DNA of 64,000 bases from a virus. A program made the position numbers and the translations under genes. How positions within the stretch are numbered: position 1 is the first letter of the stretch; the number at the start of each line of letters is the position of its first letter. The notes beneath the pieces were generated by a model. The model made no database searches, was not told where the DNA came from, and saw only the letters and a list, made by a program, of their open reading frames with translations. The stretch spans positions 13,376 to 77,375 of IMG/VR virus record IMGVR_UViG_3300046311_000263, one strand, 5' to 3'. This document shows positions 8,964-62,561 of the stretch, piece after piece.

Positions 8964-9814
8964 CAGTAAGCTTTAAACAAATGACTACCGCTGAGCCAAA
9001 TACAGTAATGGTGGTAGACGCCCTAAATTTAGCATTTAGATATAAACACTCTAAAGCTAAAAGTTTCGTAGATGATTACTTACATACAGTAGATAGCTTG
9101 AAAAAATCTTATAAAGCAGCTAAAGTTATTATTACCTGCGATGCTGGTAGTAGCTCCTATAGAAAAAACTTATTTCCTGAATATAAGCAAAATCGTAAAG
9201 ATAAACAAGAAACACAAACTGAACAAGAACGCGCAGAATTCGAGGTATTCTTTGAAGAGTTTATGAGAGTTATGGATGTGTATGCCGAGGGGCATGACTA
9301 CCCACTACTACGTTTTGATAAATGCGAAGCAGACGACATTGCCGCTTATATAGTAAACAAGCGTAGAAAAAAGAACAAGATATGGCTTATTAGTTCAGAT
9401 AAAGACTGGGATCTGCTTATAAGTGAGTCTGTATCTAGATTTTCCTATGTAACTAGAAAGCAGATAACTTATGATAACTGGCATGAGCATTATGATTATA
9501 GCATCGATGATCATATTAGTATTAAGTGTCTTACTGGCGACACTGGCGACAACATACCTGGCGTATCAGGTATTGGCCCTAAAAAAGCCTTTGCACTTGT
9601 TCAAGAATTCGGCTCTACTTACGATATTATTGCATCTTTGCCCATATCTAGCAAGTATAAGCATATTGCTAACCTTAATGACTTTGGGGCTGAAGCACTA
9701 CTTCTTAACTATAGGCTAATGGATTTACAGTCTAATTGTGCAGAAGCGTTAGGCGAAGAAAACTGTGCCACTATTGATAAAGTCTTAAAGGAATATTTAG
9801 ATGGAAATAATTGA
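8960..9814 (+). CDS. D15: 5'-3' exonuclease/flap endonuclease (D15)
   Basis: VDALNLAFR, EADD, SSDKD, GDTGDNIPGVSGIGPK H3TH motif. Confidence 0.95.
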   Translation: MTVSFKQMTTAEPNTVMVVDALNLAFRYKHSKAKSFVDDYLHTVDSLKKSYKAAKVIITCDAGSSSYRKNLFPEYKQNRKDKQETQTEQERAEFEVFFEEFMRVMDVYAEGHDYPLLRFDKCEADDIAAYIVNKRRKKNKIWLISSDKDWDLLISESVSRFSYVTRKQITYDNWHEHYDYSIDDHISIKCLTGDTGDNIPGVSGIGPKKAFALVQEFGSTYDIIASLPISSKYKHIANLNDFGAEALLLNYRLMDLQSNCAEALGEENCATIDKVLKEYLDGNN

Positions 9815-49120: not shown

Positions 49121-49600
49121 TTATTCATTGTTAATTATCCCTGAAGTAAGCTGACGAATAAGGTTATCATACTTGGATCCGCCATTGTTAACCTGCACAT
49201 TTAGCTGGTTTTTAATATTAGCTGAACGTGCTTTCTCTAGATCTATTTGTTTAGACATCTCATCCATGGTCATCTTGTGGCTTAGGGCCAGCAATTCAGC
49301 AATATCCTTAGCCGATCCAGTTTCTGATTCTTCCAGTTCCTGAAATTTCTTCTGAATAATAGCATCCATAGCTCTTCGCATTTTGAACCTATTATTAAAC
49401 CCCATATTGAAGAATACGTGATCTATGTAAGCTTTCACTTCTCTGCGATTTAGAGTTTCTGTGACAATTTCGGGAGGAAGGTCTAATTCTTCCGAGGTCG
49501 CTCGTATATCCTGGAGCTGAAGATAACTATTAGCAATTTCCAGGTACTCTGGGCTAATTGCTAGAACTTCGGCGGGGGTGTGTGTTGGTAGATTAGCCAT
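49121..49600 (-). CDS. terS: Terminase small subunit
   Basis: ISPE..IANSYL, SAKDIAELL; immediately upstream of terL. Confidence 0.88.
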   Translation of the reverse strand: MANLPTHTPAEVLAISPEYLEIANSYLQLQDIRATSEELDLPPEIVTETLNRREVKAYIDHVFFNMGFNNRFKMRRAMDAIIQKKFQELEESETGSAKDIAELLALSHKMTMDEMSKQIDLEKARSANIKNQLNVQVNNGGSKYDNLIRQLTSGIINNE

Positions 49601-49626
49601 GGTGTAAAATAAGTGCGATTGGTACA

Positions 49627-49655
49627 ATTATACCACCTAGGGTAATCACGTGCAA
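49627..49655 (-). promoter_or_regulatory. sigma70-type promoter for terS
   Basis: TTGCAC-17-TATAAT with TG. Confidence 0.8.
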
Positions 49656-49934
49656 GTGTATTTTTCTAGGGTTTAAAGCTTACTTGAATAATCTAGGTTA
49701 TTTTGTTAAAATAATGGCTTGGCACCGTAATTGTTTTCTAAAATTTTCTAAATAGGCCTTGGTGGTGGGTGTATAGGCATGGGTGGACATGTTAGTCAAG
49801 TATCCCCCCCAGTATACCACAGTCTCATGGCCCACGGCAAGCTAAAAGATGTAACAACCTGTAACTTATAAGGTTATTGTTGTAGGTTAATTTTCGTGTT
49901 ATACTACGTTCACGCAATCAAAAAGGACTCCCAA

Positions 49935-50318
49935 ATGAACCGCGATACCGTTCTGCTCTCGATCATCAAGCAACTTATGCTGTCCCTCGACTCCTATGAG
50001 ATGAGGGCTCTTCTGGAAAAGGTTCTGGACAAGGAGCCGGAAGCTATTGCTCGCGGCCTGGGTGTTCATGTCCCTGTCCCTGTGACTGTAGAGGCGACCC
50101 CGGCATGGGCGTATGAGACGGTTGCCTTTCTGCGGAGCGCACACAAGGTGTCAGCTATCAAGGCTGTGCGTGCCGCTACCGGCATGGGCTTGAAGGAGGC
50201 AAAAGACACGATTGATTACTTCAGCGGGTACGGGGACGTTACTCACTACGGCCTATGTTACAAGGGGCAGGAGGCTGTTGCTGCCCTGCGTCGTGTTACC
50301 GGTACACTCTATATCTAA
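49935..50318 (+). CDS. Protein with ribosomal bL12 (L7/L12) C-terminal-domain-like motif
   Basis: KVSAIKAVRAATGMGLKEAKDTID; AGGA SD. Confidence 0.75.
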   Translation: MNRDTVLLSIIKQLMLSLDSYEMRALLEKVLDKEPEAIARGLGVHVPVPVTVEATPAWAYETVAFLRSAHKVSAIKAVRAATGMGLKEAKDTIDYFSGYGDVTHYGLCYKGQEAVAALRRVTGTLYI

Positions 50319-50473
50319 GTAGAGCAATAGGGGTTAGCCCCTATTGGCGCCTAAATTATACCACATAATTTAGGCCCGTGTCAACGTGCAGGACGTAACA
50401 ACCTGTAACTTGTAAGGTTGTTGCATTCCTAGAATTTTGCTGCTATACTACGTTCATTGTATAGGAGATAGAG

Positions 50474-50605
50474 ATGAGCAACCCGAACCAAGCCCGCTAC
50501 CTGACCCTGATCTGCGAAGCTGAGCGTTGGGGGAATCAAAGGGCATGTACGAAGTTGCCGCTATCTACTACGCTGCTGCTAACAAGCTGGAGATTAACTG
50601 AATGA
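50474..50605 (+). CDS. Small ORF, possibly frameshifted in a G5 run
   Basis: AGGAG SD; alternative frame after TGGGGG reads GMYEVAAIYYAAANKLEIN. Confidence 0.5.
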   Translation: MSNPNQARYLTLICEAERWGNQRACTKLPLSTTLLLTSWRLTE

Positions 50606-50757
50606 AACTCTTTCGCATCGCCTACCGCTTCATGATCAGCGACTTTCATGTCGAGGTGCAGTTCCGTGCCGCAAACAAGCAAATAGCCAAGGAGCTATTC
50701 ACTGAATTCATGCAACCGCAACATACCGAGATCGTGCTGGTCGAAACTGTCAAGTAA
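50602..50757 (+). CDS. Hypothetical protein (51 aa)
   Basis: MKLFRIAYRF..., GGAG SD, ends at repeat. Confidence 0.7.
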   Translation: MKLFRIAYRFMISDFHVEVQFRAANKQIAKELFTEFMQPQHTEIVLVETVK

Positions 50758-50922
50758 TTAATTGTAACAGCAAGTTGCTCGCTGTTACAATTTTGCGCCA
50801 AAATTATACCATATAATTTTGGGGCGGGTCAAAAAAGAACTGTAACAACCTGTAACTTGTAGGGGTATTACTTCACTAGAATTTTTTATGTTATACTACG
50901 TTCACTTTATAGGAGATATGAG

Positions 50923-51108
50923 ATGCCTAAAGCTCTCGAAAACCCCGAAATCCCTCTCTACGTGCGTCGCGTGTTGGCCGATGCTGCGCTCGAATACGCT
51001 AACGCTTTGGTTAAGAGCGAAAACGTCGAGCGTGCCTTCCGAGCCCTCAACCTTGCAGCAGATGATGCGATAACGTGTCTGCGTGCCTCCTATCTGGGGA
51101 TGAAGTAA
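50923..51108 (+). CDS. Hypothetical protein
   Basis: AGGAG SD, promoter upstream. Confidence 0.75.
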   Translation: MPKALENPEIPLYVRRVLADAALEYANALVKSENVERAFRALNLAADDAITCLRASYLGMK

Positions 51109-51332
51109 TGAACGGGCTGCGTCAAGTTTCTAGCCCGATGGTGCTGATTCCTGCATACGGTCGCGTATACACTACCCGCGAGGCTATGCTAAAAGACTGG
51201 GAGGCGGGTAAAGATTTCCGTGTGGTTGGGCATGGGTGCTACACCAGTATCCGTGATCTGGCCATGTTGCGGGAAAGTAGCAGCAGCGTTACCCTGCACG
51301 AGCCGCGCGCGCATATTCACATCAAGCTGTAA
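51108..51332 (+). CDS. Hypothetical protein
   Basis: TAATG coupling; PAYGRVY..DWEAGKDF motif. Confidence 0.75.
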   Translation: MNGLRQVSSPMVLIPAYGRVYTTREAMLKDWEAGKDFRVVGHGCYTSIRDLAMLRESSSSVTLHEPRAHIHIKL

Positions 51333-51565
51333 ACAATAACCCTACAGGTTGTAGGGTTATTTGCGCCGATTATACCATATATAATCGCCCCGCGTCACGC
51401 GGAGAAGTGTAACAATGTGTAAGCACGTTGTTACGATTTGCGCCAAAATTATACCACACCGCGTATGCACTGTCTATAGGAGTTTACCACTAGCAAATAG
51501 TTGTTGACTCTGTACCTAGCAGGCATCATAATAGATTCATCGGATCAAGAAACGGACTGCCAAAA

Positions 51566-51754
51566 ATGACCTCCTCCAAGTTCACTCCCGCCGTCGGTCT
51601 GCGTTGCTGGGTTCGCGTGTACTCTAGCGGCCGCACGGAAGTTCACTTTGTGGAAATCGTCGAACTGTTCGGCGTGGTAGGTGCTCGCGTGCAGATCATT
51701 GGGGATCGCATCATCCGCGTTTGTCAGTCGCAACTGTGCGCTAACCCTGTCTAA
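51566..51754 (+). CDS. Hypothetical protein
   Basis: Promoter TTGACT-17-CATAAT upstream; stop codon begins the cassette repeat. Confidence 0.7.
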   Translation: MTSSKFTPAVGLRCWVRVYSSGRTEVHFVEIVELFGVVGARVQIIGDRIIRVCQSQLCANPV

Positions 51755-51785
51755 GGGTTTGTCCCAATAGCCTTAGGAGTTACAA

Positions 51786-51926
51786 ATGGACACGAATCCC
51801 AACATGTACAAGCAAATGAATTCCCGCTTTGCCTACGCGGCTGTCAATTCGTCATTCGCTGACAACTTCTACTGGCAGGACACTGGCGGTTTTGCGTCCA
51901 TGTGGCTTATGGGCGGCGAGCTGTAA
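51786..51926 (+). CDS. Hypothetical protein (46 aa)
   Basis: AGGAG SD; MDTNPNMYKQ...GGEL. Confidence 0.7.
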   Translation: MDTNPNMYKQMNSRFAYAAVNSSFADNFYWQDTGGFASMWLMGGEL

Positions 51927-51991
51927 GGGTTTGTCCTAATAGCGGCAGGACTGCAAAGCCGCTAAACTGTGATCTCACTTTTGGAGTTTCT

Positions 51992-52123
51992 ATGAACCGC
52001 TTTCAACGTGGCTTTACCCTGTTTGAACTGATCTTTGTGATCGTTTGGCTGGCCTTTGCTGGCGCAGGCATCTACCTGCTGTCCCTGGTGGTGCGTGCGC
52101 TGCTGAAATACATTGGCGGCTAA
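51992..52123 (+). CDS. Mini prepilin-like protein (class III signal peptide only, 43 aa)
   Basis: MNRFQRG|FTLFELIFVIV: Gly-1, Phe+1, Glu+5, hydrophobic helix; GGAG SD. Confidence 0.8.
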   Translation: MNRFQRGFTLFELIFVIVWLAFAGAGIYLLSLVVRALLKYIGG

Positions 52124-52189
52124 GGGTTTGTACTAATAGCGGCAGCACACAAAAGCCGCTAAACTGTGATCTCACTTTTGGAGTTTTTG

Positions 52190-52360
52190 ATGAAGATTTT
52201 TGCTGGTTTCCTAAGCCTTGTCGGCCTGATTCTGTCCTCGATTGTTGGGTACCAGCTGGTGCAGGCTGTGATGCCGTCGCTGTTTCCACTGTGGCTGGCT
52301 AGCACACTGTTTATTTGGTGTGGGCTGGTGGCTAATACTGTTTCCAGGATGGAACAGTAA
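52190..52360 (+). CDS. Small two-helix membrane protein (56 aa)
   Basis: GGAG SD; hydrophobic. Confidence 0.7.
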   Translation: MKIFAGFLSLVGLILSSIVGYQLVQAVMPSLFPLWLASTLFIWCGLVANTVSRMEQ

Positions 52361-52432
52361 GGGTTTGTCCTAATAGCGGCAGGACTGCAAAGCCGCTAAA
52401 CTGTGATCTCACTTCAACGATTGGACTGTAAA

Positions 52433-52603
52433 ATGAACCTGACCCGTGCAAACGAAATCCGCGCTTCCCTCGGTCTGGCTCCGGTGGCTGGCCCTGATGC
52501 TGTGGCTGTCCAGGCGCAGAAGCGTCGTCAGGCTGCCAACAAGGCCGCCCGCGCGCAGGAGTCGCGCGATCTGAAGGCCAAGCGAGGCAGCCGCTCCAAG
52601 TGA
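52433..52603 (+). CDS. Small basic protein (56 aa)
   Basis: NEIRASLGLAP then Arg/Lys/Ala-rich tail. Confidence 0.7.
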   Translation: MNLTRANEIRASLGLAPVAGPDAVAVQAQKRRQAANKAARAQESRDLKAKRGSRSK

Positions 52604-52743
52604 GCAAAGCCCCTACAAGCTGTAGGGGCTTTTTGCGCCAAAATTATACCATACAATTTTGGGGCGGGTCAAAAAAGAACTGTAACAACCTGTAACTTGT
52701 AGGGGTATTATACACCAGCGAATTTCCGTGCTAGAATGCATGC

Positions 52744-52959
52744 ATGGTCAAAATCATCTCCTGGATAGGTACTGCAACTAGCATTGCTGGATCTTTCATC
52801 GTTGCTTCACAAATGTTTTTGCTTGGCTATTGCTTTTTTCTCGTTGGCAGCGTATCATGGCTGTATGTCGGGGCTGTCCGTCGGGAGGCCTCCCTAGTAG
52901 TTTTGAACGGCACATTCTTTGCCGCTAACCTTTTGGGGCTTTACAATGCTGCATTTTAG
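52744..52959 (+). CDS. Small three-TM membrane protein, probably leaderless
   Basis: Hydrophobic; ATG 6 nt after TAGAAT. Confidence 0.75.
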   Translation: MVKIISWIGTATSIAGSFIVASQMFLLGYCFFLVGSVSWLYVGAVRREASLVVLNGTFFAANLLGLYNAAF

Positions 52960-53019
52960 CTTTTTGTTTGTCGTCATTCTGGCATTCGTGCCGCTCAGTA
53001 TTGTGTACAGGAACCTGAA

Positions 53020-53169
53020 ATGAAATTCGGTATTCTTTTCCAGCCGGGAGCTTTCTGGATCGGTGTGCATTATTCACCATTTTGCAAACGGTATTGCATC
53101 AATTTGATTCCGTTTGTTACCCTCTGGGTCGCTGAAAAAGACGGCAAAATTCCGCACTCCACGCGATGA
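53020..53169 (+). CDS. Hypothetical protein (49 aa)
   Basis: FWIGVHYSPFCKRYCINLIPFVTLW; AGGA SD. Confidence 0.7.
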   Translation: MKFGILFQPGAFWIGVHYSPFCKRYCINLIPFVTLWVAEKDGKIPHSTR

Positions 53170-53249
53170 AAGAATATCAGATTCAGAAACTGATAAATTC
53201 CGCGCTGCTGGAAGTACTTGCGATTTTTGGTTATTTGCCTAGGAGTTAA

Positions 53250-53451
53250 TATGTGGTTTCCGTACGATGATTCTAAGGTAAACGATTTTTTCAGCAAGGA
53301 AAAAGATTTCTTGCTGAAATTGGATTATACTCGTGTTGTGATAGCGGGGTTATTCAATAATGGCGTTGATGGGTATCAATGGATTACCAGCGAGAATTGC
53401 CGAGTAATTCCCAGGGATAGAATCACGGATTACATGAGCATTCCGGACTAA
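53250..53451 (+). CDS. Hypothetical protein
   Basis: AGGAG SD before MWFPYDD; start approximate. Confidence 0.6.
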
Positions 53452-53456
53452 ACAGC

Positions 53457-53609
53457 ATGAAAGATAATCAAATGTGGCAAAAATGGTTTGCTTGGTATCC
53501 AGTAGCTTTTGGCCCTTATATCGTGTGGATGAAAACTGTCCAGCGAAAACAAGTGATTATGGAGGGACGTAAATATTGGTTCTATCGTAGAAACGTATTT
53601 CCGCTCTAA
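53457..53609 (+). CDS. Hypothetical protein (50 aa)
   Basis: WFAWYPV...IVWMK motif. Confidence 0.6.
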   Translation: MKDNQMWQKWFAWYPVAFGPYIVWMKTVQRKQVIMEGRKYWFYRRNVFPL

Positions 53610-53739
53610 TAAATAAGGGGAAACCCTTATTTTTGCGCCAATTTTACCACATAAAATTGGGCCAGGTCAAAAAAGAATTGTAACAACCTGTAACTTGTAG
53701 GGCTATTGCTTCGCTAGAATTTTCTGTTATACTCTACGC

Positions 53740-54120
53740 ATGATGACACCTGAACAGATGCTGGCGGACGCTCTACCCTGGGCAGACTATTGGTGGGCGA
53801 AGTTTAAGGGCATATATCGCTTGACTAAGCCTATGTCGACGTTTAAAATGAATAAACGGCTTAAGACAACGGCCGGGCGTAATTTCTGGATCGAGCGGGT
53901 TATTGATCTAAGCGTGGAATTGTATGGACAATATCCAGACGAATTTCGGTGCGAGATAATCCCGCATGAGTTGGCCCATCAAGTTACGTTTGACGTATAT
54001 GGAGAATGTCGGCAGATTCACGGCACAGAATGGAAATCTGTGATGCGTGCGGTAGGTCGAGAGCCTAGCACGTATCACAGTATGGAAAATCAGATTCACG
54101 CAGCGAGGAAAGCAAAATGA
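53740..54120 (+). CDS. SprT-like zinc metalloprotease, probably leaderless
   Basis: RLKTTAG, HELAH, HGTEWK. Confidence 0.88.
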   Translation: MMTPEQMLADALPWADYWWAKFKGIYRLTKPMSTFKMNKRLKTTAGRNFWIERVIDLSVELYGQYPDEFRCEIIPHELAHQVTFDVYGECRQIHGTEWKSVMRAVGREPSTYHSMENQIHAARKAK

Positions 54121-54239
54121 AAATTTTCGAGATTGTGTTTTGGAACGGGCAGAGCCAAATTGTTTTTGCTGAAACCCGTCGCGAGATTCGCAAAAAATTC
54201 ATTGGTATTCGTGAAATTAACCGGGTGGAAATTCATTGA
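54117..54239 (+). CDS. Hypothetical protein (40 aa)
   Basis: ATGA coupling, GAGG SD. Confidence 0.6.
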   Translation: MKIFEIVFWNGQSQIVFAETRREIRKKFIGIREINRVEIH

Positions 54240-54600
54240 TGGAAGCCGTTACTGTTCTTTTGTGGTGCGCTGCAGCGCTGCCCCTTTCTTGTGTTTTGTT
54301 TGGTGCTATTCAGGGGTTGTTCGACCCTGATATTCCGGATATTACCCATTCGGATATTGATCCGGAAATGTAATAGTAACCAATAAGGGTAAACCCTTAT
54401 TGGCGCCATTTTACTGTGGTAAAATGGGCCGTGTCAAGCGGTACTGTGTAACAGTTTGTAACAGCGTCTGCCGATAGGTAGGCGCCAAAATTATACCACA
54501 CGCCGAAACGGCTGTCTATAGGTGTTTTCACCTAGAAAATAGTTGGCACGAAACGGAAAAGTGCGATAGAATAGCATCACTGTAGAGCAAAGGACGCATA

Positions 54601-55077
54601 ATGGCAACGATTCGCAAGGTTTCGATTTACGACATGGATGGCACGATTGTGGATTCGACGCATCGCTATCGCACGCAAACCATTAACGGCGTCGAGAAAA
54701 TTGACCTTGAATATTGGCGTGCAAATGAATATCGCGCAATGGAAGATGGTTTGCTCCCGCTGGCGGATCAGTATATGGACGAATTGCGCGATCCGTCCGT
54801 CTATGTGATTATTGCCACTGCCCGCGTTATGGGCGCTGCCGACTGGCAGTTTGTGCGCAATATTCTCGGCGAACCCGATTACTTTATTTCCCGCGCTGCG
54901 GACGATACTCAGTCCGGCGGTTCGCTGAAAATCAAGGGGTTGCAAAAGTTTTTCAATCTGCGGCAGTTTCGCAAAGCTGATGCGGTTTTCTACGAAGATA
55001 ATACTTCGTATCTGAAGGCGGTTTGTGACCATTTTCAAATTCGGGGTGTTTACATTCCGTCGAAGCAGGGGCACTAA
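54601..55077 (+). CDS. dmp: HAD-family deoxynucleoside-5'-monophosphatase (T5 Dmp-like)
   Basis: YDMDGTIVDSTHR, DGLLPL, IIATARVM, YEDN match recalled T5 Dmp motifs. Confidence 0.85.
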   Translation: MATIRKVSIYDMDGTIVDSTHRYRTQTINGVEKIDLEYWRANEYRAMEDGLLPLADQYMDELRDPSVYVIIATARVMGAADWQFVRNILGEPDYFISRAADDTQSGGSLKIKGLQKFFNLRQFRKADAVFYEDNTSYLKAVCDHFQIRGVYIPSKQGH

Positions 55078-55185
55078 AATGGGGGTTCTGTATATTTTCC
55101 TAATTCTTTTGGGAATATTCGGAGCCTATTTCCTGCTGGAATGGGCATGGGATTTTCTGGTTTCTTGGCCTTTTGAGGAATGAAT

Positions 55186-55353
55186 ATGGGTATGCTCGTA
55201 AATAAACTGATTTTCCAGCTTGGCAAAATTGAGCTGGAAATTTATCGGCTGAATACTGCTAAATCCTCGGCCGATATTTACGAGCGTAGTGAAATCCAAT
55301 ATAGGCTAGATAGCCTATACCGCGAGAAACAAGTATTGCTAGCGAGTATTTGA
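55186..55353 (+). CDS. Hypothetical coiled-coil protein (55 aa)
   Basis: GAGG SD; open frame. Confidence 0.6.
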   Translation: MGMLVNKLIFQLGKIELEIYRLNTAKSSADIYERSEIQYRLDSLYREKQVLLASI

Positions 55354-55601
55354 GATACTAATAAGGGTTTACCCTTATTTTTGCGCCAAAATTATACCAT
55401 ACAATTTTGGGCCGTGTCAATAGGGTAAACCCCTATTGACACAAACAAATGTGTAACATTTGTAACAGCTGTAGGCGCCAAAAATTATACCACACCCGAA
55501 AAAAGCTGTCAATAGGGGTTTGTCCTAGTGACGCGGTCGGCGGGATAGGGTAGACTCTACTTTGATCGCGCATTCCTGCCCGACATACTCTGGAATATAT
55601 A

Positions 55602-56300
55602 ATGGCCCGCAAGCAGTTTTTCATTGGTATTGATACTGAAACCACCATTACTGATAAGGTTGTGGATTTTGGCGCGGTTATTCACGATCGGGCCGGTAAT
55701 ATCTACGGCCAATGTGGCATTCTGGTTCGTGATGTTTTCGGCGTTGACGATTTGTTTTATGATCGTAATTCCTCGGGTATCTGGGCGCGTAATAGTATTG
55801 CCCGCCGGATGAATAACTACAACCAAATGCTGGATTCTGGTATTCGTATGTTGGCATCTGTTAATGCTATCAATAACTGGCTTGCTAAGGCAATTGGCAA
55901 ATATGATCCGACTATGTATGCCTATAATCTGGCATTTGACGAATCTAAATGCCGGAATACCGGAATTGATTTGAATGGGTTTTCCAATCGTTTCTGCCTT
56001 TGGGGCGCTGCGGTTGGCAACATCTGCAATACCAAAAAGTATCGGCAGTTTGTCATGGATAATCATCTGTTCAATAATCGTACCGAAAAGGGTAACATGA
56101 CCTTTTCGACTACTGCGGAATCGGTTACTGCTTTTCTTCGTGGCGAGTATACGGATGAACCGCATACTAGCGTCGAAGATATTATCGGGTATGAGATGCC
56201 GACCCTGGTACATATTCTGAAAAAGAAGGATTGGAAGGAAAAGATTACCCCCTATAACTGGCGCGGTTTTCAGGTCAAAAACCATTTTCAGGCTAAGTAA
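55602..56300 (+). CDS. DEDDh 3'-5' exonuclease
   Basis: IDTET, AYNLAFD, HTSVED. Confidence 0.88.
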   Translation: MARKQFFIGIDTETTITDKVVDFGAVIHDRAGNIYGQCGILVRDVFGVDDLFYDRNSSGIWARNSIARRMNNYNQMLDSGIRMLASVNAINNWLAKAIGKYDPTMYAYNLAFDESKCRNTGIDLNGFSNRFCLWGAAVGNICNTKKYRQFVMDNHLFNNRTEKGNMTFSTTAESVTAFLRGEYTDEPHTSVEDIIGYEMPTLVHILKKKDWKEKITPYNWRGFQVKNHFQAK

Positions 56301-56302
56301 TC

Positions 56303-56638
56303 ATGCGAATTCACGAATTTGTCGAGTATCTGGATCTGGAGTTTCCCTATACTATTAAGCTGAAAAGCAAAGGTTGTCGAGATACTGCCAGATACTGGAA
56401 TATGGTAAATGATGAACATGGGCTGGAGTATCACCTGATTCATGTTTATCTCGGGAATCTAGGTAAACCCGGTGAGCGAGATTTGGAAACCCTTATTGCC
56501 CATGAATTGATTCACGCATGGCAGACTGAGCAGAATATGGATGAAATTCACGGCAAGGGGTTTATTAAAATGGCGGGCAAAATGTCCAAGAAATTCGATT
56601 TACCCCGTATCTATATACCCGAGGTAGATATTCCGTAA
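56303..56638 (+). CDS. Second SprT-like metalloprotease
   Basis: TLIAHELIH, HGKGF. Confidence 0.75.
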   Translation: MRIHEFVEYLDLEFPYTIKLKSKGCRDTARYWNMVNDEHGLEYHLIHVYLGNLGKPGERDLETLIAHELIHAWQTEQNMDEIHGKGFIKMAGKMSKKFDLPRIYIPEVDIP

Positions 56639-57006
56639 AAAACCCCGAAAGGGGTTTTTTATTATCTGCGGGATACTAATAAGGGTTTACCCTTATTTTG
56701 CGCCAAAATTATATCATATAATTTTGGGCCCGGGCCAATTGATTTTTTCAATTGGCCCGTGAGACGCCATAGGTAAGGCCTATGGCGCCAAAATTATACC
56801 ATACCCGCAAAAAGCTGTCAATAGGGGAAAGCACCTAAAATTTAGTCTTGCGCGGGCCACCGGATTCGGGCATAATAGATTTATCGGATCAGGAAACAGA
56901 CAGAACGGGGCGCAACAAGCAAAGTCCCTACAGTTGACAAGGGTTTCTGGTTCGGTTATACTGTGTTCTCTGTTGATTAACTTGTGTCTCGAAAGGACTA
57001 CTGAAA

Positions 57007-57384
57007 ATGGCTACCGCTAAGACTGTGAACTACACCCCCGAACAAACCGCGGAACTCAAGGCCGCTTACGTGGCATCCCCGAATGCCGATACCGTGGCGC
57101 TGTTTGCCGAAAAGTTTGGCAAGACCGTGAAATCGGTCGTGGCGAAGCTCTCGCGCGAAGGTGTGTACAAGGCGAAGGAATATGTGAGCAAGACCGGCGA
57201 GAAGCCGGTGAAAAAGGATACGCACGCTGACGCTATCGGTGCGGTTCTCAAGATGACCGAAGCGGAAATCGAATCGCTGACGAAGGCCAACAAAACGGCG
57301 CTTGTCAAGATTTTTCAAGCTCTGGCAAATTCCAAGCCGTTGGAAAACGGCGAGGATCGGGCAGGCGAAAAGGCCCCCGAGTAA
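57007..57384 (+). CDS. A2: A2-like DNA-binding protein, paralog 1
   Basis: NYTPEQT, KSVVAKLSREGVY, SLTKANKTAL resemble recalled T5 A2/D3; two tandem promoters upstream. Confidence 0.8.
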   Translation: MATAKTVNYTPEQTAELKAAYVASPNADTVALFAEKFGKTVKSVVAKLSREGVYKAKEYVSKTGEKPVKKDTHADAIGAVLKMTEAEIESLTKANKTALVKIFQALANSKPLENGEDRAGEKAPE

Positions 57385-57855
57385 GCAATAGGGGGAAACC
57401 CCTATTGTAAAATCCTAGGACAAACCCGGCGCTCCGGGGGTCTTAAAATAAATCCTGTCTAGGTCAGGTGAGAATAGCCCTGTCAAGTACAGGGCTATTT
57501 TTTGGCCTGGCGCTGTTACAAACTTTTACATTTTTCCGCTTGACTTTTCGTGCGCAGCGTGTTATAATACAAGCGCAGGCGCGCCAAAATTTTGTTACAA
57601 ATTTGCGCCAAAATTATAACATATAGTTTTGGCCAGTGTCAACAACTTTCTTCTAGGGGTTTTCACCTATGTTTTTATTTTGGCGTCGTGAGATACTATC
57701 TTTGTTGGTTGAGGGGCTTTGTAGGGTGTGGGGGATAGGCTCCCACTCTGCCTAGCAGCGGATGACTCTAGCCGGGTACACTCTACAAAGCCCCTACAGT
57801 TGATAAGGTTTCTAGTTTCGGTTATACTGTGTTTCTACTTTGAAAGGTTCTGAAA

Positions 57856-58197
57856 ATGTCTGCTTCCAATTCCAAGCTGTCCGCTGTGCAAAAGAGTGAA
57901 CGTAGGCGGCTGCTTGCGGCGCTTCCCAAGGGTTCCGTTCTGGCAATGTCTGAATGTGGTGTTACCGTCCTGACGATTCCCGATGGTGCAGTTACTCGCA
58001 TGTATACGTCGGTTGCATCCCAGACGGAAAAAAAGCTGCGTCGCAAGGTTGGTGAGTACAACGTGCTGATGCGTGAGTATCATGGTGGTGGCGACGTGGT
58101 TTTGCAGCGTCATATGGATGCTGAGGGGGTGGTTGTCGATCTATTTGGTGGAGTGGCCGGAACCGAAGACGGTATGCCCTTCATCCGTTACCTGTAA
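57856..58197 (+). CDS. Hypothetical protein
   Basis: Promoter and SD similar to those of 57007. Confidence 0.75.
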   Translation: MSASNSKLSAVQKSERRRLLAALPKGSVLAMSECGVTVLTIPDGAVTRMYTSVASQTEKKLRRKVGEYNVLMREYHGGGDVVLQRHMDAEGVVVDLFGGVAGTEDGMPFIRYL

Positions 58198-58438
58198 TAG
58201 GCGAGTTAATTGAATAATATTCGCGCTCCGCCCTGACGGGTATATTATAAAAAATATTATAGATAAAACCCCGCGCGCTGCGGGGTTTTTGTTTGTCAAG
58301 CATTGTTACATTTGTTACACTTTGTTACAAGTTTGCGCCAATTTTACCACATAAAATTGGCGCACGTCAATAGGGGAAAGCACCTATATTTTTTGTTTTT
58401 TTCTGTGGCACAATGGATTTATCTGCTTAGGAGGTAGT

Positions 58439-58591
58439 GTGGCTAACAAGGAATACAAGCGCTATGCGTCTTTCGGGCCGGGCGGCTTCAATTGCGCTGC
58501 TCCGGGCAGGGTCAGAAAAGCGACCCTGAGGCGTGCAAAGCGCATCGAACGTGCTAAAATGCGTCGTCAGCTTGAAAAGGAATCGAAATGA
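58439..58591 (+). CDS. Small basic protein (50 aa)
   Basis: AGGAGG SD, GTG start, GPGG motif. Confidence 0.65.
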   Translation: MANKEYKRYASFGPGGFNCAAPGRVRKATLRRAKRIERAKMRRQLEKESK

Positions 58592-58719
58592 CAGATATTA
58601 TCTGGGTCTGGAGTCGGCGATACCCCGACTATGCAGAACGTATGCGTGCCATGTCGCACCCCAATAACGTGCAGAACGCCTTTGAAGCGGCGTCGATGAT
58701 GTTTCTGGAGCCTATTTAA
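58588..58719 (+). CDS. Hypothetical protein (43 aa)
   Basis: ATGA coupling, AAGGA SD. Confidence 0.6.
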   Translation: MTDIIWVWSRRYPDYAERMRAMSHPNNVQNAFEAASMMFLEPI

Positions 58720-58950
58720 ATGACGCTTTCCCCTTTTGAATACCCGGTCGATCGGGCCATCGCAAGTTTCAACGATACTCAGCTGAATCCCCGGCTGCCT
58801 ATCGAGGAAATTCAAGGCTTGCATGATTCTGGCCTTTCGACCGACGAAGACGGCGAAGCCATCGTCGATACTATCGACCCCGAAATTCCGTTTGGATGGC
58901 GGGTTATTGAGGCTGACGACCCTTTGATTCTCAACCCCCAGGAGATTTAA
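58720..58950 (+). CDS. Small acidic protein
   Basis: 76 aa, Asp/Glu-rich. Confidence 0.7.
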   Translation: MTLSPFEYPVDRAIASFNDTQLNPRLPIEEIQGLHDSGLSTDEDGEAIVDTIDPEIPFGWRVIEADDPLILNPQEI

Positions 58951-58952
58951 AC

Positions 58953-59207
58953 ATGGGAGTATGTGTCCAGTTTTACAAAAAGGGTTCTAGTAACCCTGAA
59001 AAGCTGGCAGACATTGATAATGCTATTTGTAAGCATTTCGGCGTCGAACCGGATCCCAAACTGTGGTTTGAATACTGGTTTGATACTGTCGGATTCTTTC
59101 TGGCGTGCGGAAAGGATTATGACTGGATTGTGAGAGAATATCCCGAGCGTCAGGCACTTTGTGTGTTTCTCGCACAAAACTACGAAGTTAGCCACTGGAG
59201 AGAATAA
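58953..59207 (+). CDS. Hypothetical protein
   Basis: AGGAG SD; IDNAICKHFGVEPDPK. Confidence 0.75.
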   Translation: MGVCVQFYKKGSSNPEKLADIDNAICKHFGVEPDPKLWFEYWFDTVGFFLACGKDYDWIVREYPERQALCVFLAQNYEVSHWRE

Positions 59208-59337
59208 TAAAAACCCGCCGTAGCGGGTTTTTTTATTATCTACGACATACTAATAAGGGTAAACCCTTATTGGCGCCATTTTAACATATAAAATGGGCAC
59301 CTGTCAAGGATTGTTACAAATTTTTACATACTCCCTA

Positions 59338-59356
59338 AATGCGAATGCGTCTCATT
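59338..59356. promoter_or_regulatory. Fur-box-like site
   Basis: AATGCGAATGCGTCTCATT, 16/19 to AATGAGAATGATTCTCATT. Confidence 0.6.
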
Positions 59357-59434
59357 ACGGCTAATTTGCGCCAAAATTATACCACAGAAAAACTGCCCGC
59401 GTCAAGCGCTGTTACATCTGTTACACTTAAGTAA

Positions 59435-59505
59435 GTGAGCACTTACGGGGGCGGTCTAAGTAAGTGAGCGCTCACTGGGCGCTTTACAAGTTGGTGAGCA
59501 CTCAC
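59435..59505. promoter_or_regulatory. Three SlmA-binding-sequence-like palindromes
   Basis: GTGAGCACTTAC 59435, GTGAGCGCTCAC 59464, GTGAGCACTCAC 59494 vs consensus GTGAGTACTCAC. Confidence 0.7.
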
Positions 59506-59562
59506 TATCGTACCATTGGCCGCGGAGGCGGCGAATTGCCGTGGCGGCAAAAAGTCCTTATG

Positions 59563-59575
59563 AATCAATGACTTA
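59563..59575 (+). promoter_or_regulatory. IHF-binding consensus
   Basis: AATCAATGACTTA = WATCAANNNNTTR with upstream A-tract. Confidence 0.65.
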
Positions 59576-59981
59576 CGTATTTTCGCAGCTCCTTGCGAGC
59601 TGCGCCAGTGGTAAAACTAGCTAAAATTTCTGCACGTGCGCTGCGCCAAAATTATACAGTGCCAAAGCTATCTGAGTCAAGTAAATATTTTCACACTTGA
59701 CGTGGCCATCCAAAAGTGACAAAATGAATATTCTTCGGCGGACAAGCGAACCAAATGGGTTAACCTGTCGAAGCAACCTCGTTTATGCGTTAAATTAGCG
59801 ACTCAAATTTTTGGTGACTATACTCATACATCAGAAAATATTGTCTTGCACAACGAGGCGGTTTACGTTACAATAGATTCATCGGTTGGGAAGAGAGACA
59901 AGCTAACCGAGACGAACAAAAATTCTATCTTGTCTGTGTTTCTAATAGTGCGATATAATAATTCTTTAGAAGGGAATTCAA

Positions 59982-60320
59982 ATGACTGAAAAGACCAAGG
60001 CCGTGAACTACACCGCCGAACAAGTTGCTGAGATGGTTGAAGCTTACAAGGCTGTGTCGACCAAGGCTACCGTGAAGGCCCTGGCTGAAAAGCTGGGCAA
60101 GACCGAGCGTAGCGTTATCGCTAAGCTGGCAAAGGAAGGGGTTTACCAGAGCGAGGCGAAGGAAGCCGGCAAGCGTGCCATGCTGAAGAGCGAGATGGTG
60201 GCTAAGCTGGCGGAGCTGACCGGCGCGAGCGAGGAACAGCTGGACAGCCTGGAGAAGGCTACCGGTACTGCACTGATGGTGCTGGTGAAGGCTCTGACTG
60301 CGGCGCAAGCCGCTGAGTGA
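59982..60320 (+). CDS. A2: A2-like DNA-binding protein, paralog 2
   Basis: VNYTAEQ, GKTERSVIAKLAKEGVY, SLEKATGTAL; clearly paralogous to 57007. Confidence 0.8.
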   Translation: MTEKTKAVNYTAEQVAEMVEAYKAVSTKATVKALAEKLGKTERSVIAKLAKEGVYQSEAKEAGKRAMLKSEMVAKLAELTGASEEQLDSLEKATGTALMVLVKALTAAQAAE

Positions 60321-60347
60321 GCAACCCGAGGGTCAGAAAATTTTGAC

Positions 60348-60467
60348 TTGACCCTCGAGGTATTTTAATCTATAATAGATATATCGATTGGGGAATAGCA
60401 GCAACAGACACCAGCGTCGAATGACTAAAAATTCTGTCTTGACTCGCTGCTAATTCTTCTGTATAAT
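60348..60467 (+). promoter_or_regulatory. Two tandem consensus sigma70-type promoters for the ncRNA operon
   Basis: TTGACC-17-TATAAT (60348-60376) and TTGACT-17-TATAAT (60439-60467). Confidence 0.88.
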
Positions 60468-60473
60468 GAATGT

Positions 60474-60906
60474 ATGCCAGGCGGAATGCTGGCGGCGTAA
60501 GTACCAGAAACACTGGCAGCCATAAATGAAAGTGTGGGTGGACAGCGGTGGTGCTGGCAGCATAAATCATGCTGTTACAGGTTGATCCAAGCGTCCTTAA
60601 TTGCCGAGAATATTAGAGAGACTTTGCAGTATTTACACTACCAAAGTAAACCTAGAGCCGAGCGTCAGCCCTTCAGAACACCGATTGAAATCCCTGCCGC
60701 ACTTTACCAGTGCAGGCATATGACCTGCAGACAACATTAAGGCGGGGATTTCAATGGGTGGTTTGAGACCCCGCCGTAAGGCCGGGATAAAAGCTTAATG
60801 GAGTCTGAAATACTCGAGTCTCCGCCCAGTAAATTAGTCTATTTTGTTGACCCCCGGCGAGTCAAGTGTTTTCGCAAGTCTATGTTAGACTCGCCGGGGA
60901 AGGCTG
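60474..60906 (+). ncRNA. Structured non-coding RNA(s), family unassigned
   Basis: 15-bp stem 60684-60698/60741-60755, 12-bp stem 60852-60863/60888-60899, several small hairpins. Confidence 0.6.
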
Positions 60907-60915
60907 TGAAGTATT

Positions 60916-60990
60916 GCCGTATTCGTCTAGTGGTTAGGACACCGGGGTTTCATCCCGTCAACGAGAGTTCGATTCTCTCATATGGTACCA
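60916..60990 (+). tRNA. tRNA-Glu(UUC), copy 1
   Basis: Cloverleaf, TTC anticodon, GAGAG-TTCGATT-CTCTC T arm, encoded CCA. Confidence 0.92.
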
Positions 60991-61105
60991 AACGCAAACT
61001 CTGATGATGACTCCGCGTTAAGTGAGTCGAAACTCTAGCTATCTGTAGCAAATCGCTGAAGCAACTTCAGTCTGCCTCACTTGCTATAACCTAGGGTCAG
61101 GAAGT
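60991..61105 (+). ncRNA. Type I hammerhead ribozyme, copy 1 (cut after C61098)
   Basis: CUGAUGA, stem II GACUC/GAGUC, GAAA, stem III ACUCUAG/CUAGGGU, GUC site, AACGC/GCGUU pseudoknot. Confidence 0.85.
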
Positions 61106-61108
61106 ATT

Positions 61109-61183
61109 GCCGTATTCGTCTAGTGGTTAGGACACCGGGGTTTCATCCCGTCAACGAGAGTTCGATTCTCTCATATGGTACCA
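61109..61183 (+). tRNA. tRNA-Glu(UUC), copy 2
   Basis: Identical to copy 1. Confidence 0.92.
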
Positions 61184-61298
61184 AACGCAAACTCTGATGA
61201 TGACTCCGCGTTAAGTGAGTCGAAACTCTAGCTATCTGTAGCAAATCGCTGAAGCAACTTCAGTCTGCCTCACTTGCTATAACCTAGGGTCAGGAATT
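61184..61298 (+). ncRNA. Type I hammerhead ribozyme, copy 2 (cut after C61291)
   Basis: Identical core to copy 1. Confidence 0.85.
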
Positions 61299-61300
61299 TA

Positions 61301-61932
61301 TACCACTGGCCATGGCGGCCAAAGCTAAATAGTAATATCTAAGAGATCGCAACTTAGGTTCCTAAATCCGGAAACCAACGGTGCACGTATTGCATGTCCG
61401 TGGTAATGCCAAAAGGCTACTGATATTCGGATAACTAACCACTTACAGAGCTGGTGCTCGTTGGTGGAGGTTACATGTGTCACCAGCCGTCTATCTGAGG
61501 TCAACCTATGCTCAGATTGCACGATATATAATGGCTCCTAGTGAACTGTCGTTCATAGCTGGGGGAAGCAGAACGACGTTAGCCTACCCCTTTATGGACG
61601 AGAGCGGTAGAGGTGAAGTTAAGATGCCAAAGTAGATGAAATTTCTACAACCTAGATAGGCCCTGATAAGCAATCACCACTAAGGTGAGAGTGCTCATAG
61701 TCAAAACCTTTAAATAGTAGCTTGGTGATCTACTAGTCTAGACAGCTGCGAGATAGTGACTTATCGTCTCCTTAGACCAAGAATGGTACACTTGGTGCAG
61801 ATAAAGAAATCTCGGATGCGCGACCGAGTGTGAACATGTTACGAAATATGTAGGAAGCATATCCTCCCCTAATAAGGTATAGAAAAGCAGCCAGTAGTGC
61901 CAACCAGCCAGACTGAAATTAAATCGGTGGTA
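61301..61932 (+). ncRNA. Large ornate ncRNA (~630 nt; ROOL/GOLLD-like in size and context)
   Basis: Closing stem TACCACTG/CGGTGGTA, more than 12 internal hairpins, no + strand ORF of 60 aa or more, terminator follows. Confidence 0.75.
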
Positions 61933-61941
61933 CGATTTATC

Positions 61942-61975
61942 CAGCCCCTACGTCGAAAGACCTAGGGGCTGTTTT
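61942..61975 (+). terminator. Intrinsic terminator of the ncRNA operon
   Basis: CAGCCCCTA-CGTC-GAAA-GAC-CTAGGGGCTG-TTTT. Confidence 0.85.
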
Positions 61976-62179
61976 CGTTCCTGCGCCAATATTATACAGT
62001 GCCAAAACTATCTGTGTCAAGTGAGAATTTACTCAGCCGACCCTACGTCAGAGCAGTCTCCCGCCTCCGGCGGGTACTTGCTCAAATTTAGGCATCTGCT
62101 CAAATTTGAGCAAATACCCAAACTTAGGCCAATTATCGCTTCTAACCGATATTTTGAAAATATCGCCTCTAGCCGATAT

Positions 62180-62230
62180 AAAATGCAAAAAGCCCACACA
62201 GTATTACGCTGTGTGGGCTTTTTGCATTTT
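62180..62230 (-). terminator. Long hairpin terminator after D3-like gene
   Basis: AAAATGCAAAAAGCCCACACAG...CTGTGTGGGCTTTTTGCATTTT. Confidence 0.85.
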
Positions 62231-62561
62231 AGACACCTGCTTCGCAGGGAGATAATTTCTCAATAATTAGCTTTAATATGCTTTTATTGACCTTACCTAG
62301 ACTTTCTGCGAGATCTATGTCGATTTCTAGCAATTCTGCGAGTTTTTGGACGTAAAACTCTTTTTTAACTGGAGGTTCGCCGGTTTTTCCGACGTAGGAC
62401 TTCTTTTTGTAGAGGCCCATAGAGCTGAGCTTGGCTATGATGCTTCGCTCAGTGGTGCCAAATTGCGACGCAAGCTCGCAGGTTGGCACGCCTGAGGTGA
62501 ACTGAGCTACTAGGGACTTCGTTATCTCGTGTGTGTATTCTAACTTACCAAGGGGCGTCAT
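62229..62561 (-). CDS. D3: D3-like DNA-binding protein (A2/D3 family)
   Basis: GTTERSIIAKLS, YVGKTGEPPVKK shared with 57007; directly follows D2-like gene. Confidence 0.75.
   Translation of the reverse strand: MTPLGKLEYTHEITKSLVAQFTSGVPTCELASQFGTTERSIIAKLSSMGLYKKKSYVGKTGEPPVKKEFYVQKLAELLEIDIDLAESLGKVNKSILKLIIEKLSPCEAGV

Follow-up and report, generated by a model that had tools for sequence, protein, structure and literature searches.

An array of geneless, backward-facing sigma70-type promoter elements beside the terminase genes of a T5-like virus

We analyzed a 64,000-nucleotide stretch of viral DNA (the window), which comprises bases 13376-77375 of the 77,375-bp IMG/VR record IMGVR_UViG_3300046311_000263, an incomplete contig. 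Between 49806 and 62020, the window carries 19 elements that resemble near-consensus sigma70-type promoters. All 19 lie on the minus strand and face left, against plus-strand genes, as a sequence-only reading of the window had reported for about 18 sites. We propose, with a confidence somewhat short of an even chance, that they are real sigma70-type promoters and form the backward half of modules at cassette boundaries, like inverted promoter-early stem-loops (PeSLs), whose short or antisense RNA would insulate or damp the early gene blocks.

The array stands out clearly from chance. The pattern TTGAC-N16-19-TATAAT occurs 17 times in the window against 0.26 expected matches, and ten of these are minus-strand sites within 50355-62020. 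A looser scan of 49500-62400, accepting at least 10 of the 12 hexamer positions, also found 17 minus-strand sites, and adding a requirement for GGCGC gave the 19 elements. Their anatomy is TTGACA, a spacer of 17 or 18 bp, TGnTATAAT, and then (TTT)GGCGC. The GGCGC, which had been called invariant, follows the -10 box by 0 to 5 nt in 18 of the 19, the exception being a degenerate copy at 49840-49806 with TATACT and GGGGG. The spacers were described earlier as mostly 18 bp with a 17-bp subclass; this holds (17 bp in the copies at 51476, 54518, 55512, and 56821, 18 bp in the remainder) except for a weak copy at 56738-56700, which has a 19-bp spacer and a weak -35 box. The six minus-strand promoters that drive late genes outside the array (24393, 31967, 38915, 45936, 47636, and 49655) all have 17-bp spacers, as had been stated, together with A+T-rich discriminators and no GGCGC.

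The placement of the elements is equally regular. Every element in the window lies between the last gene of a plus-strand block, from which it is about 25-70 nt away when that gene is completely called, and the promoter of the next block. The resulting layout is a run of one to four plus-strand genes, then one or two backward promoters, then the forward promoter of the next block. After 49840, 50384, 50832, 52672, and 53670, this layout takes the form of a cassette, in which the backward promoter is followed by a TGTAACAACCTGTAAC core and a forward extended -10 promoter, TGTTATACT; the distance from the backward -35 box to the forward -10 box, measured at 49840, 50384, 50832, and 53670, is 57-59 bp. 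The genes of the 49.9-60.3 kb interval are on the plus strand and have ribosome-binding sites. PHROG matches fall on plus-strand open reading frames (ORFs) only, with none for any minus-strand ORF in this interval, and no downstream ORF with a ribosome-binding site was found for the window copies or for the copies inspected in related DNA. The earlier description of the elements as having no gene to transcribe holds, in that none has a convincing gene downstream.

The elements fall into three classes. In the palindromic class, which has an 18-bp spacer, arms of 8-14 nt cover the spacer, the -10 box, and part of GGCGC; this arrangement is present in 11 of the 19 elements. Changes in one arm are compensated in the other (ATTTTA with TAAAAT, CGATTATA with TATAATCG, and CCTAAATTAT with ATAATTTAGG), and the copy at 58335-58370 contains a perfect 13-nt inverted repeat (fold z-score -5.0). 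The 17-bp class has no core palindrome, and its -35 box adjoins a TAGGGG..CCCCTA palindrome. The third class (59680 and 62020) has the spacer CAGATAG(C/T)TTTGGCACTG and the start region GGCGCAG.

The same elements recur in related viral DNA. We assembled a family set of loci sharing the exact core 17-mer TGGTATAATTTTGGCGC, 1.06 Mb in total; the 17-mer occurs in at least 118 IMG/VR stretches. This set contains 530 unique TTGAC-N18/19-TAWAAT sites, in which the -35, extended -10, and -10 boxes are kept and the consensus extends through the spacer, and GGCGC lies within 14 nt in 412 of them. In 425 of 442 unique copies, a hairpin starts no more than 25 nt past GGCGC, mostly at 0-4 nt, and the mean stem score after GGCGC is 10, compared with 6.5 at random places. 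This bears out the earlier remark that in most cases a palindrome comes right after the promoter. The palindrome co-varies with the discriminator: the match between a discriminator type and its own spacers extends over 7.6-8.6 nt, compared with only 4.5-5.0 nt for the spacers of other types. Such co-variation is the pattern that would be expected of a hairpin-forming sequence and not of one fixed protein half-site. A crude ORF caller placed opposite-strand ORFs downstream of 366 of 479 family copies, and the five "same-strand" cases that we inspected were all shadow ORFs that lacked ribosome-binding sites.

In five relatives, which are 96-100% complete, the layout is that of the window. Each carries its elements on a single strand, the strand of the large terminase, in one 5-8 kb block upstream of that gene. 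The relatives have 4-8 elements each, compared with 19 in the window, which suggests that copy number follows the number of gene blocks instead of a fixed dose. Conservation between copies and between phages is confined to the promoter and does not extend to the transcribed sequence. Contigs of four metagenomes break or branch at the elements, and many have only the promoter core in common and diverge on both sides. Some contigs join one element to another (e.g. 59251 to 54382 and 52634 to 55383), although such joints at repeats may be assembly artefacts or stem from other phages. A search for cultured relatives among 50,697 phage records, with the region (megablast) and with one element (blastn), returned nothing meaningful, and the terminal repeats of T5 and My1 hold no comparable array. 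We found no published description of these elements in the literature searched. What is new here includes the way in which the palindrome arms co-vary with discriminator type, the division into three promoter classes, and the synteny with the terminase in near-complete relatives; also new are the self-contained small units, a promoter-less CACTGGCGCAG repeat, and a match to the T5 nick consensus and strand, all described below.

Because -35, extended -10, and -10 boxes at the correct spacing in hundreds of copies are hard to explain otherwise, we infer that host sigma70-type holoenzyme would recognize the elements as genuine promoters. Each module would close a plus-strand block, with its promoter pointing back to the terminase-proximal end. 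Transcription would start at or next to GGCGC and run straight into the hairpin, which is often the predicted terminator of the preceding block, and the product would be a short hairpin-capped RNA or an antisense RNA over that block. Backward transcription would then halt read-through polymerases or collide with them, so that each cassette would be expressed independently of its neighbors, and the backward promoter would damp the block that it faces. The near-identical dispersed modules may double as recombination linkers for cassette shuffling. A local boundary function of this kind is suggested because the elements sit at block ends, keep a fixed geometry with the forward promoter, lead immediately into hairpins, and seem to track the number of blocks. 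Insulation by convergent transcription, a secondary option of the sequence-only reading, is well suited by copies that all sit at block boundaries. The GC-rich discriminator, 18-bp spacer, and palindrome would mark the elements as a single co-regulated class that probably responds to DNA topology or to a factor directed at the discriminator. The shared discriminator points to a regulatory class by comparison with T5, whose promoter classes differ mainly in the discriminator and whose protein gpT5.026 acts on discriminator contacts (PMC7472727).

It is important to note that several points weigh against this explanation. Only 28% of the family hairpins have a U-rich tail in the promoter direction, versus 16% at random, which leaves most backward transcripts without an obvious terminator; given this modest enrichment, we rejected the idea that the hairpins are simple terminators. 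Strong antisense transcription across genes that are required first would carry a cost. The conserved spacer, the GGCGC, and the co-varying palindrome are not explained by sigma70 alone. Promoter activity was judged from sequence only, and the fit to the promoters of the host is assumed. Finally, the family contains a second motif that lacks a promoter: the unit (A/G)AATTTGCACTTGA..CACTGGCGCAG (also TTTGCACTTGA..CACTGGCGCAG) occurs in two to four tandem copies downstream of third-class promoters of the family, as in loci L101 (2100-2230), L099, and L047, and once in the window. This CACTGGCGCAG repeat is biased to the strand of the backward promoters (104 to 6), and such a bias without a promoter suggests that GGCGC is read by something other than RNA polymerase.

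The setting of the array invites comparison with T5. By its large proteins (DNA polymerase, SbcC-like nuclease, ribonucleotide reductase, tape measure, major tail and head proteins, and both terminase subunits), the virus is a distant T5-like siphovirus. Its large terminase is 45% identical to those of cultured Demerecviridae and 65-70% identical to those of the five near-complete uncultured relatives, which are 101-128 kb long. At least half of the region's sampled words are present in seven freshwater-metagenome runs, one per study. The gene order is T5-like, with plus-strand replication genes followed by minus-strand late genes, the last of which encodes the small terminase (49121-49627), and the array begins just past it, in the place of the right terminal repeat in T5. 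The array region is putatively homologous to the T5 pre-early region because its dmp- and A2-family genes share PHROGs with T5 dmp (phrog_415, 4e-57) and T5 A2 (phrog_1725, 4e-52); the sequence-only reading had noted that the terminal repeat of T5, which enters first, expresses dmp and A2. The three A2-family copies match phrog_1725 with E values of 1.2e-6, 1.6e-3, and 3.5e-4. The dmp- and A2-family genes are inverted relative to T5: there they are on the minus strand, whereas those in 49.9-60.3 kb are on the plus strand. The incomplete 77-kb contig gave no match to T5 A1, and no T5.026 homologue was found in it.

The sequence-only reading had also asked whether the elements are confined to a terminal repeat. 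Confinement to one strand and one block beside the terminase holds in the five relatives, but the evidence for a repeat conflicts. In a self-comparison of the contig, its ends were not repeated internally. The contigs from run X2 that cover 50841-60937 have a depth of 37-48, compared with 23-27 in the flanks (about 1.5-2-fold). This step would suit a terminal repeat of about 10 kb; run X3, which shows no such rise, conflicts with it.

An alternative explanation starts from the nicks of T5 DNA. The single-chain interruptions of T5 have the consensus NPu↓GCGCN, with major nicks at R↓GCGCRGG (PMC3517423; T5 record feature notes), and T5-like nicks are on the minus strand (PMC10644984). The array elements could be composites of nick site and promoter, in which G↓GCGC at the backward start sites is the recognition core of a T5-type interruption. 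The nick would fall in the non-template strand of virion DNA, the palindrome could present the site to a nickase, and the nick could ease melting of a GC-rich promoter with an 18-bp spacer, on the relaxed incoming genome only. The 18 GGCGC-bearing elements all fit the Pu↓GCGC core, and all are on the minus strand, the one nicked in T5, with the late genes and terminase oriented as they are there; GGCGC is common in the block, so that the fit to the core is weak evidence. Counted alone, GGCGC shows no strand bias (24 on the plus and 20 on the minus strand in the block), and we rejected it as a strand-specific word. The copy at 61983, with GGCGCAGG, matches the major-nick consensus in full, but it is the only one of the 19 in which RGG follows GCGC. 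In T5, the major nick at 9748 is located within the terminal repeat, in the stop-signal region with its many repeats, and a palindrome begins directly after it; the direct repeats that flank this nick share a ATTTGCAC core with the strand-biased CACTGGCGCAG repeats of the family. The co-variation of the arms is also as for a DNA hairpin and not a protein half-site. On the other hand, the four major nick sites of T5 lack promoter-like surroundings, and some 30 nt upstream all of them have a GTAAT box, which is absent at -30 of the array elements; a nickase would not need the conserved -35 box, and no nickase gene was identified in our analysis. We therefore regard this composite as unlikely. 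Its boldest extension, that the packaged genome may arrive with about 19 pre-nicked, easily melted promoters that capture host polymerase on incoming DNA only, until ligase seals them, strikes us as more doubtful still.

The gene-free block 59208-59981 has a position much like that of the T5 stop-signal region: about 9.4-10.2 kb separate it from the terminase-proximal boundary, and the T5 region occupies 9.1-10.1 kb of its repeat. Within it, 59428-59510 contains three GTGAG(T/C)(G/A)CTCAC palindromes, and relatives have AGTACTAAAGTACT-type palindromes at the matching place, after the CACTGGCGCAG repeats.

The array might instead act as a timed antisense shut-off. GC-rich discriminators confer supercoiling sensitivity on promoters, and with the 18-bp spacer and a palindrome able to extrude as a cruciform, the elements could stay silent on relaxed, newly entered DNA. 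Torsional closure of the genome, or the appearance of a phage factor, would turn them on; by convergent transcription they would then shut down the pre-early blocks, with polymerases being directed to the late genes. All copies are indeed on the late-operon strand, upstream of the terminase, in six genomes; their discriminator and spacer length are unlike those of the gene-driving promoters; and class-specific discriminators with a discriminator-directed regulator exist in T5 (PMC7472727). However, the late genes have their own consensus promoters, several backward units hit terminators before any gene, and no regulator was identified, the incomplete contig having no T5.026 homologue. We hold this scenario to be about as improbable as the nick composite. 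Q-type antitermination, also considered, is weakened by the late genes having their own promoters.

The headline of the sequence-only reading was that the array may be an RNA polymerase sponge with non-productive binding, or may serve first-step DNA transfer as an anchor or ratchet. Near-consensus extended -10 promoters bind holoenzyme tightly and can be limited at escape; no gene lies downstream of the elements, and they are confined to a block homologous to the first-step-transfer region of T5. We found no direct support for this proposal. A range of 4-8 to 19 copies is unlike a dosage device, and 4-8 copies are too few to titrate polymerase from one incoming genome. If entry is terminase-proximal as in T5, the promoters point to DNA that is already inside, and transcription cannot pull DNA in. 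Strict placement at block ends and immediate hairpins would also go unexplained. We judge a sponge or ratchet very unlikely, and the secondary options of the same reading, tiny RNAs and insulation, fit the data better. Among other functions considered, transcription-driven DNA entry fails on the same orientation, and Chi-like protection from RecBCD would need no promoter.

Tiny RNAs received partial support. Two homologous units, 56704-56636 and 59277-59205, are complete, with a promoter, 5' hairpin, linker, and strong terminator (z-scores -4.0 and -4.4), and two further backward units (starts at 58339 and 57605) meet a terminator before any gene. Two to four copies are thus closed by their own terminators, but most family copies have no clear one. 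If the elements were dispersed small-RNA genes, what counts would be a free-acting RNA, 65-80 nt long and headed by a 5' hairpin, as could be formed by these two units and by the likewise terminator-ended 58339-58258. Yet conservation between copies and phages is limited to the promoter, most copies have no terminator in this direction, and Rfam covariance models found nothing above threshold downstream of the backward promoters. We consider this the least probable of the explanations.

One copy faces the opposite case, a possible long RNA, which at this single site would not suit the decoy of the sequence-only reading. Between the backward promoter at 62020 and a pair of tRNA-Glu genes, 61290-61985 has about 700 nt without a plausible ORF, and the promoter may drive a long RNA through it. 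This sequence folds far better than shuffled versions on both strands (z-scores -4.2 and -5.0), so that folding does not decide the strand, and among the relatives compared it is shared, in part, by L061 only. T5 has rnaX, a stable RNA of unknown function, beside a tRNA. The two tRNA-Glu genes are the only Rfam matches above threshold, and we rejected tRNA or other RNA genes as an explanation of the GC-rich block. Both tRNA-Glu(UUC) genes are carried by an exact 196-bp tandem duplication (60908-61296), in which Rfam at E up to 1 found no hammerhead and no other family.

The individual elements and the neighboring features are listed in Table 1.

Table 1. Coordinates and properties of the array elements and of associated features in the window
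Feature	Coordinates	Strand	Details
Degenerate element	49806-49840	-	TTGCCG, 18 bp, TGGTATACT (-10 TATACT), GGGGG; closest to small terminase gene
Backward promoter	50347-50384	-	18-bp spacer; 11-nt palindrome with compensated variant (CCTAAATTAT / ATAATTTAGG); 29 nt past stop of gene 49935-50318 (+)
Backward promoter	50795-50832	-	18-bp spacer; palindrome arms 14 nt, then 15-bp hairpin
Forward half of cassette of about 110 bp	50833-50922	+	TGTAACAACCTGTAAC core, then extended -10 promoter TGTTATACT driving next plus-strand gene
Backward promoter	51363-51398	-	-35 GTGACG; 18-bp spacer; 8-nt compensated palindrome (CGATTATA / TATAATCG)
Backward promoter, 17-bp class	51440-51476	-	-35 TAGACA; no core palindrome; tandem, upstream of copy at 51398
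Backward promoter	52635-52672	-	18-bp spacer; 11-nt palindrome; next, a 12-bp hairpin serving as terminator of the plus-strand block before it
Backward promoter	53635-53670	-	-10 TAAAAT; compensated 9-nt arms (CCAATTTTA / TAAAATTGG)
Backward promoter	54403-54437	-	-10 TAAAAT; compensated 9-nt arms (CCATTTTAC / GTAAAATGG)
Backward promoter, 17-bp class	54482-54518	-	Tandem, upstream of copy at 54437
Backward promoter	55383-55420	-	12/12 hexamer positions; 18-bp spacer; 11-nt palindrome; 30 nt past stop of gene 55186-55353 (+)
Backward promoter, 17-bp class	55475-55512	-	12/12; -35 box abuts TAGGGG..CCCTA palindrome
Backward promoter and self-contained unit	56636-56738	-	Weak -35 (TTGGCC); 19-bp spacer; 11-nt palindrome; unit of about 69 nt with 5' hairpin and linker, ended by a strong terminator with U tail; z-score -4.0
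Backward promoter, 17-bp class	56785-56821	-	12/12; 11-bp hairpin opened by GGCGC itself
Backward promoter	57605-57642	-	12/12; 12-nt palindrome; faces convergent plus-strand promoter 57540-57568; minus-strand terminator at 57438-57425
Backward promoter and unit	58258-58370	-	Perfect 13-nt palindrome; terminator-closed unit of about 80 nt with three GTAACA repeats; fold z-score -5.0
Backward promoter and self-contained unit	59205-59307	-	-10 TAAAAT; 8-nt palindrome; unit of about 73 nt, homologous to 56636-56704; z-score -4.4
Backward promoter	59368-59405	-	18-bp spacer; no palindrome; preceded by two TGTAACA repeats
Third-class promoter	59602-59680	-	Spacer CAGATAGCTTTGGCACTG; GGCGCAG; then single promoter-less CACTGGCGCAG unit at 59610; in gene-free block 59208-59981
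Promoter-less CACTGGCGCAG unit	59610 (within 59602-59620)	-	The one copy in the window
Third-class promoter	61983-62020	-	12/12; with GGCGCAGG; about 700 nt of ORF-free, strongly folding sequence downstream
TGTAACA / GTTACA repeat sites	49860-49890, 50400-50430, 50845-50875, 52685-52715, 53680-53710, 58290-58330, 59405-59430
dmp-family (HAD) gene	54601-55077	+	phrog_415, E 7e-12; 32% identity to T5 dmp over 91 aa
A2-family DNA-binding protein gene	59982-60320	+	phrog_1725
A2-family paralogue	57007-57384	+	phrog_1725
A2-family paralogue	62229-62561	-	phrog_1725

Further observations concern the surroundings of the elements. TGTAACA / GTTACA repeats with a phasing of about 10-11 bp lie just upstream of backward -35 boxes, in the window and in the family, and look like possible binding sites of a factor. 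The three A2-family paralogues in or beside the array are candidate binders of these repeats or of the repeated palindromes. At 57540-57642, an 11/12 plus-strand promoter (57540-57568) and the backward promoter at 57642 stand face to face, with starts about 30 nt apart across a GGCGCGCC palindrome; comparable pairs occur in the loci L006, L016, and L108. Two plus-strand genes, 52744-52959 and 53740-54120, start 6-7 nt past an extended -10 box (52709-52746 and 53716-53742, respectively) with no ribosome-binding site, and their mRNAs look leaderless as predicted from these positions. Between very small plus-strand genes, 51923-52414 holds three copies (51923, 52121, and 52357) of a repeat of about 58-74 bp, and one contig, from run X5, lacks 434 bp between the two outer copies, which would be a deletion variant at the level of a cassette.

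Hundreds of near-perfect geneless promoters in one orientation across a T5-like lineage would point to a function of transcription, or of polymerase binding, besides making mRNA. The cassettes would also mark where new early genes are exchanged, which bears on how the plasticity of phage genomes is read. If GGCGC is a nick site, the unexplained nicks of T5-like phages would be linked to transcription and an old question made testable; if the pre-nicked promoters are real, the nicks would gain a function, as a mark of the parental genome that transcription reads.

Several known systems share features with the array. The interruptions of T5 and BF23 have the minus-strand Pu↓GCGC core, adjoining palindromes in the repeat-rich pre-early part, and the ATTTGCAC core in nearby repeats, but they differ in having no promoter and an upstream GTAAT box. 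The injection-stop region of T5, Repeat Region 3 (Davison, bioRxiv 10.1101/866236), resembles 59208-59981 in being gene-free, about 9-10 kb from the terminase-proximal boundary, and rich in direct repeats and palindromes, with minus-strand GCGC. It differs in that T5 has no consensus promoters there, and its paired DnaA boxes were not seen in 59208-59981, although no dedicated search was made.

Lambda OOP RNA is a 77-nt product of a single promoter, pO, with an RNase III-dependent effect. As in the array, a strong promoter follows a gene and points into its 3' end, yielding a short, terminated antisense RNA, but lambda has one copy and the array 19, most without a clear terminator. In synthetic biology, Brophy and Voigt (2016) reportedly tuned gene expression with engineered 3' antisense promoters. 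Their device would correspond to the modules in that a constitutive promoter sits at the 3' end of a unit and transcribes back across a one-way terminator; it is synthetic, and the likeness is a mechanistic analogy only. If the modules act as insulators or antisense dampers, they would be its natural counterpart and a source of compact, strong parts.

The PeSLs of the T4-type phages RB49 and phi1 combine a strong sigma70 promoter with a stem-loop between or over its boxes and mediate shuffling (Arbiol et al. 2010, PMC2839356). Both systems consist of dispersed intergenic cassettes among small, variable early genes; each cassette pairs a strong sigma70-like promoter with a stem-loop, which may lie between the boxes, cover one of them, or follow shortly after. 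A PeSL ends in the Shine-Dalgarno sequence and start codon of the gene it drives, whereas the copies of the array are all antisense and geneless; the array is found in a T5-like siphovirus, and features peculiar to its family are the GGCGC start region and the co-varying palindrome that overlies the -10 box. In both systems the promoter is better conserved than its flanks, which makes the copies candidate recombination linkers.

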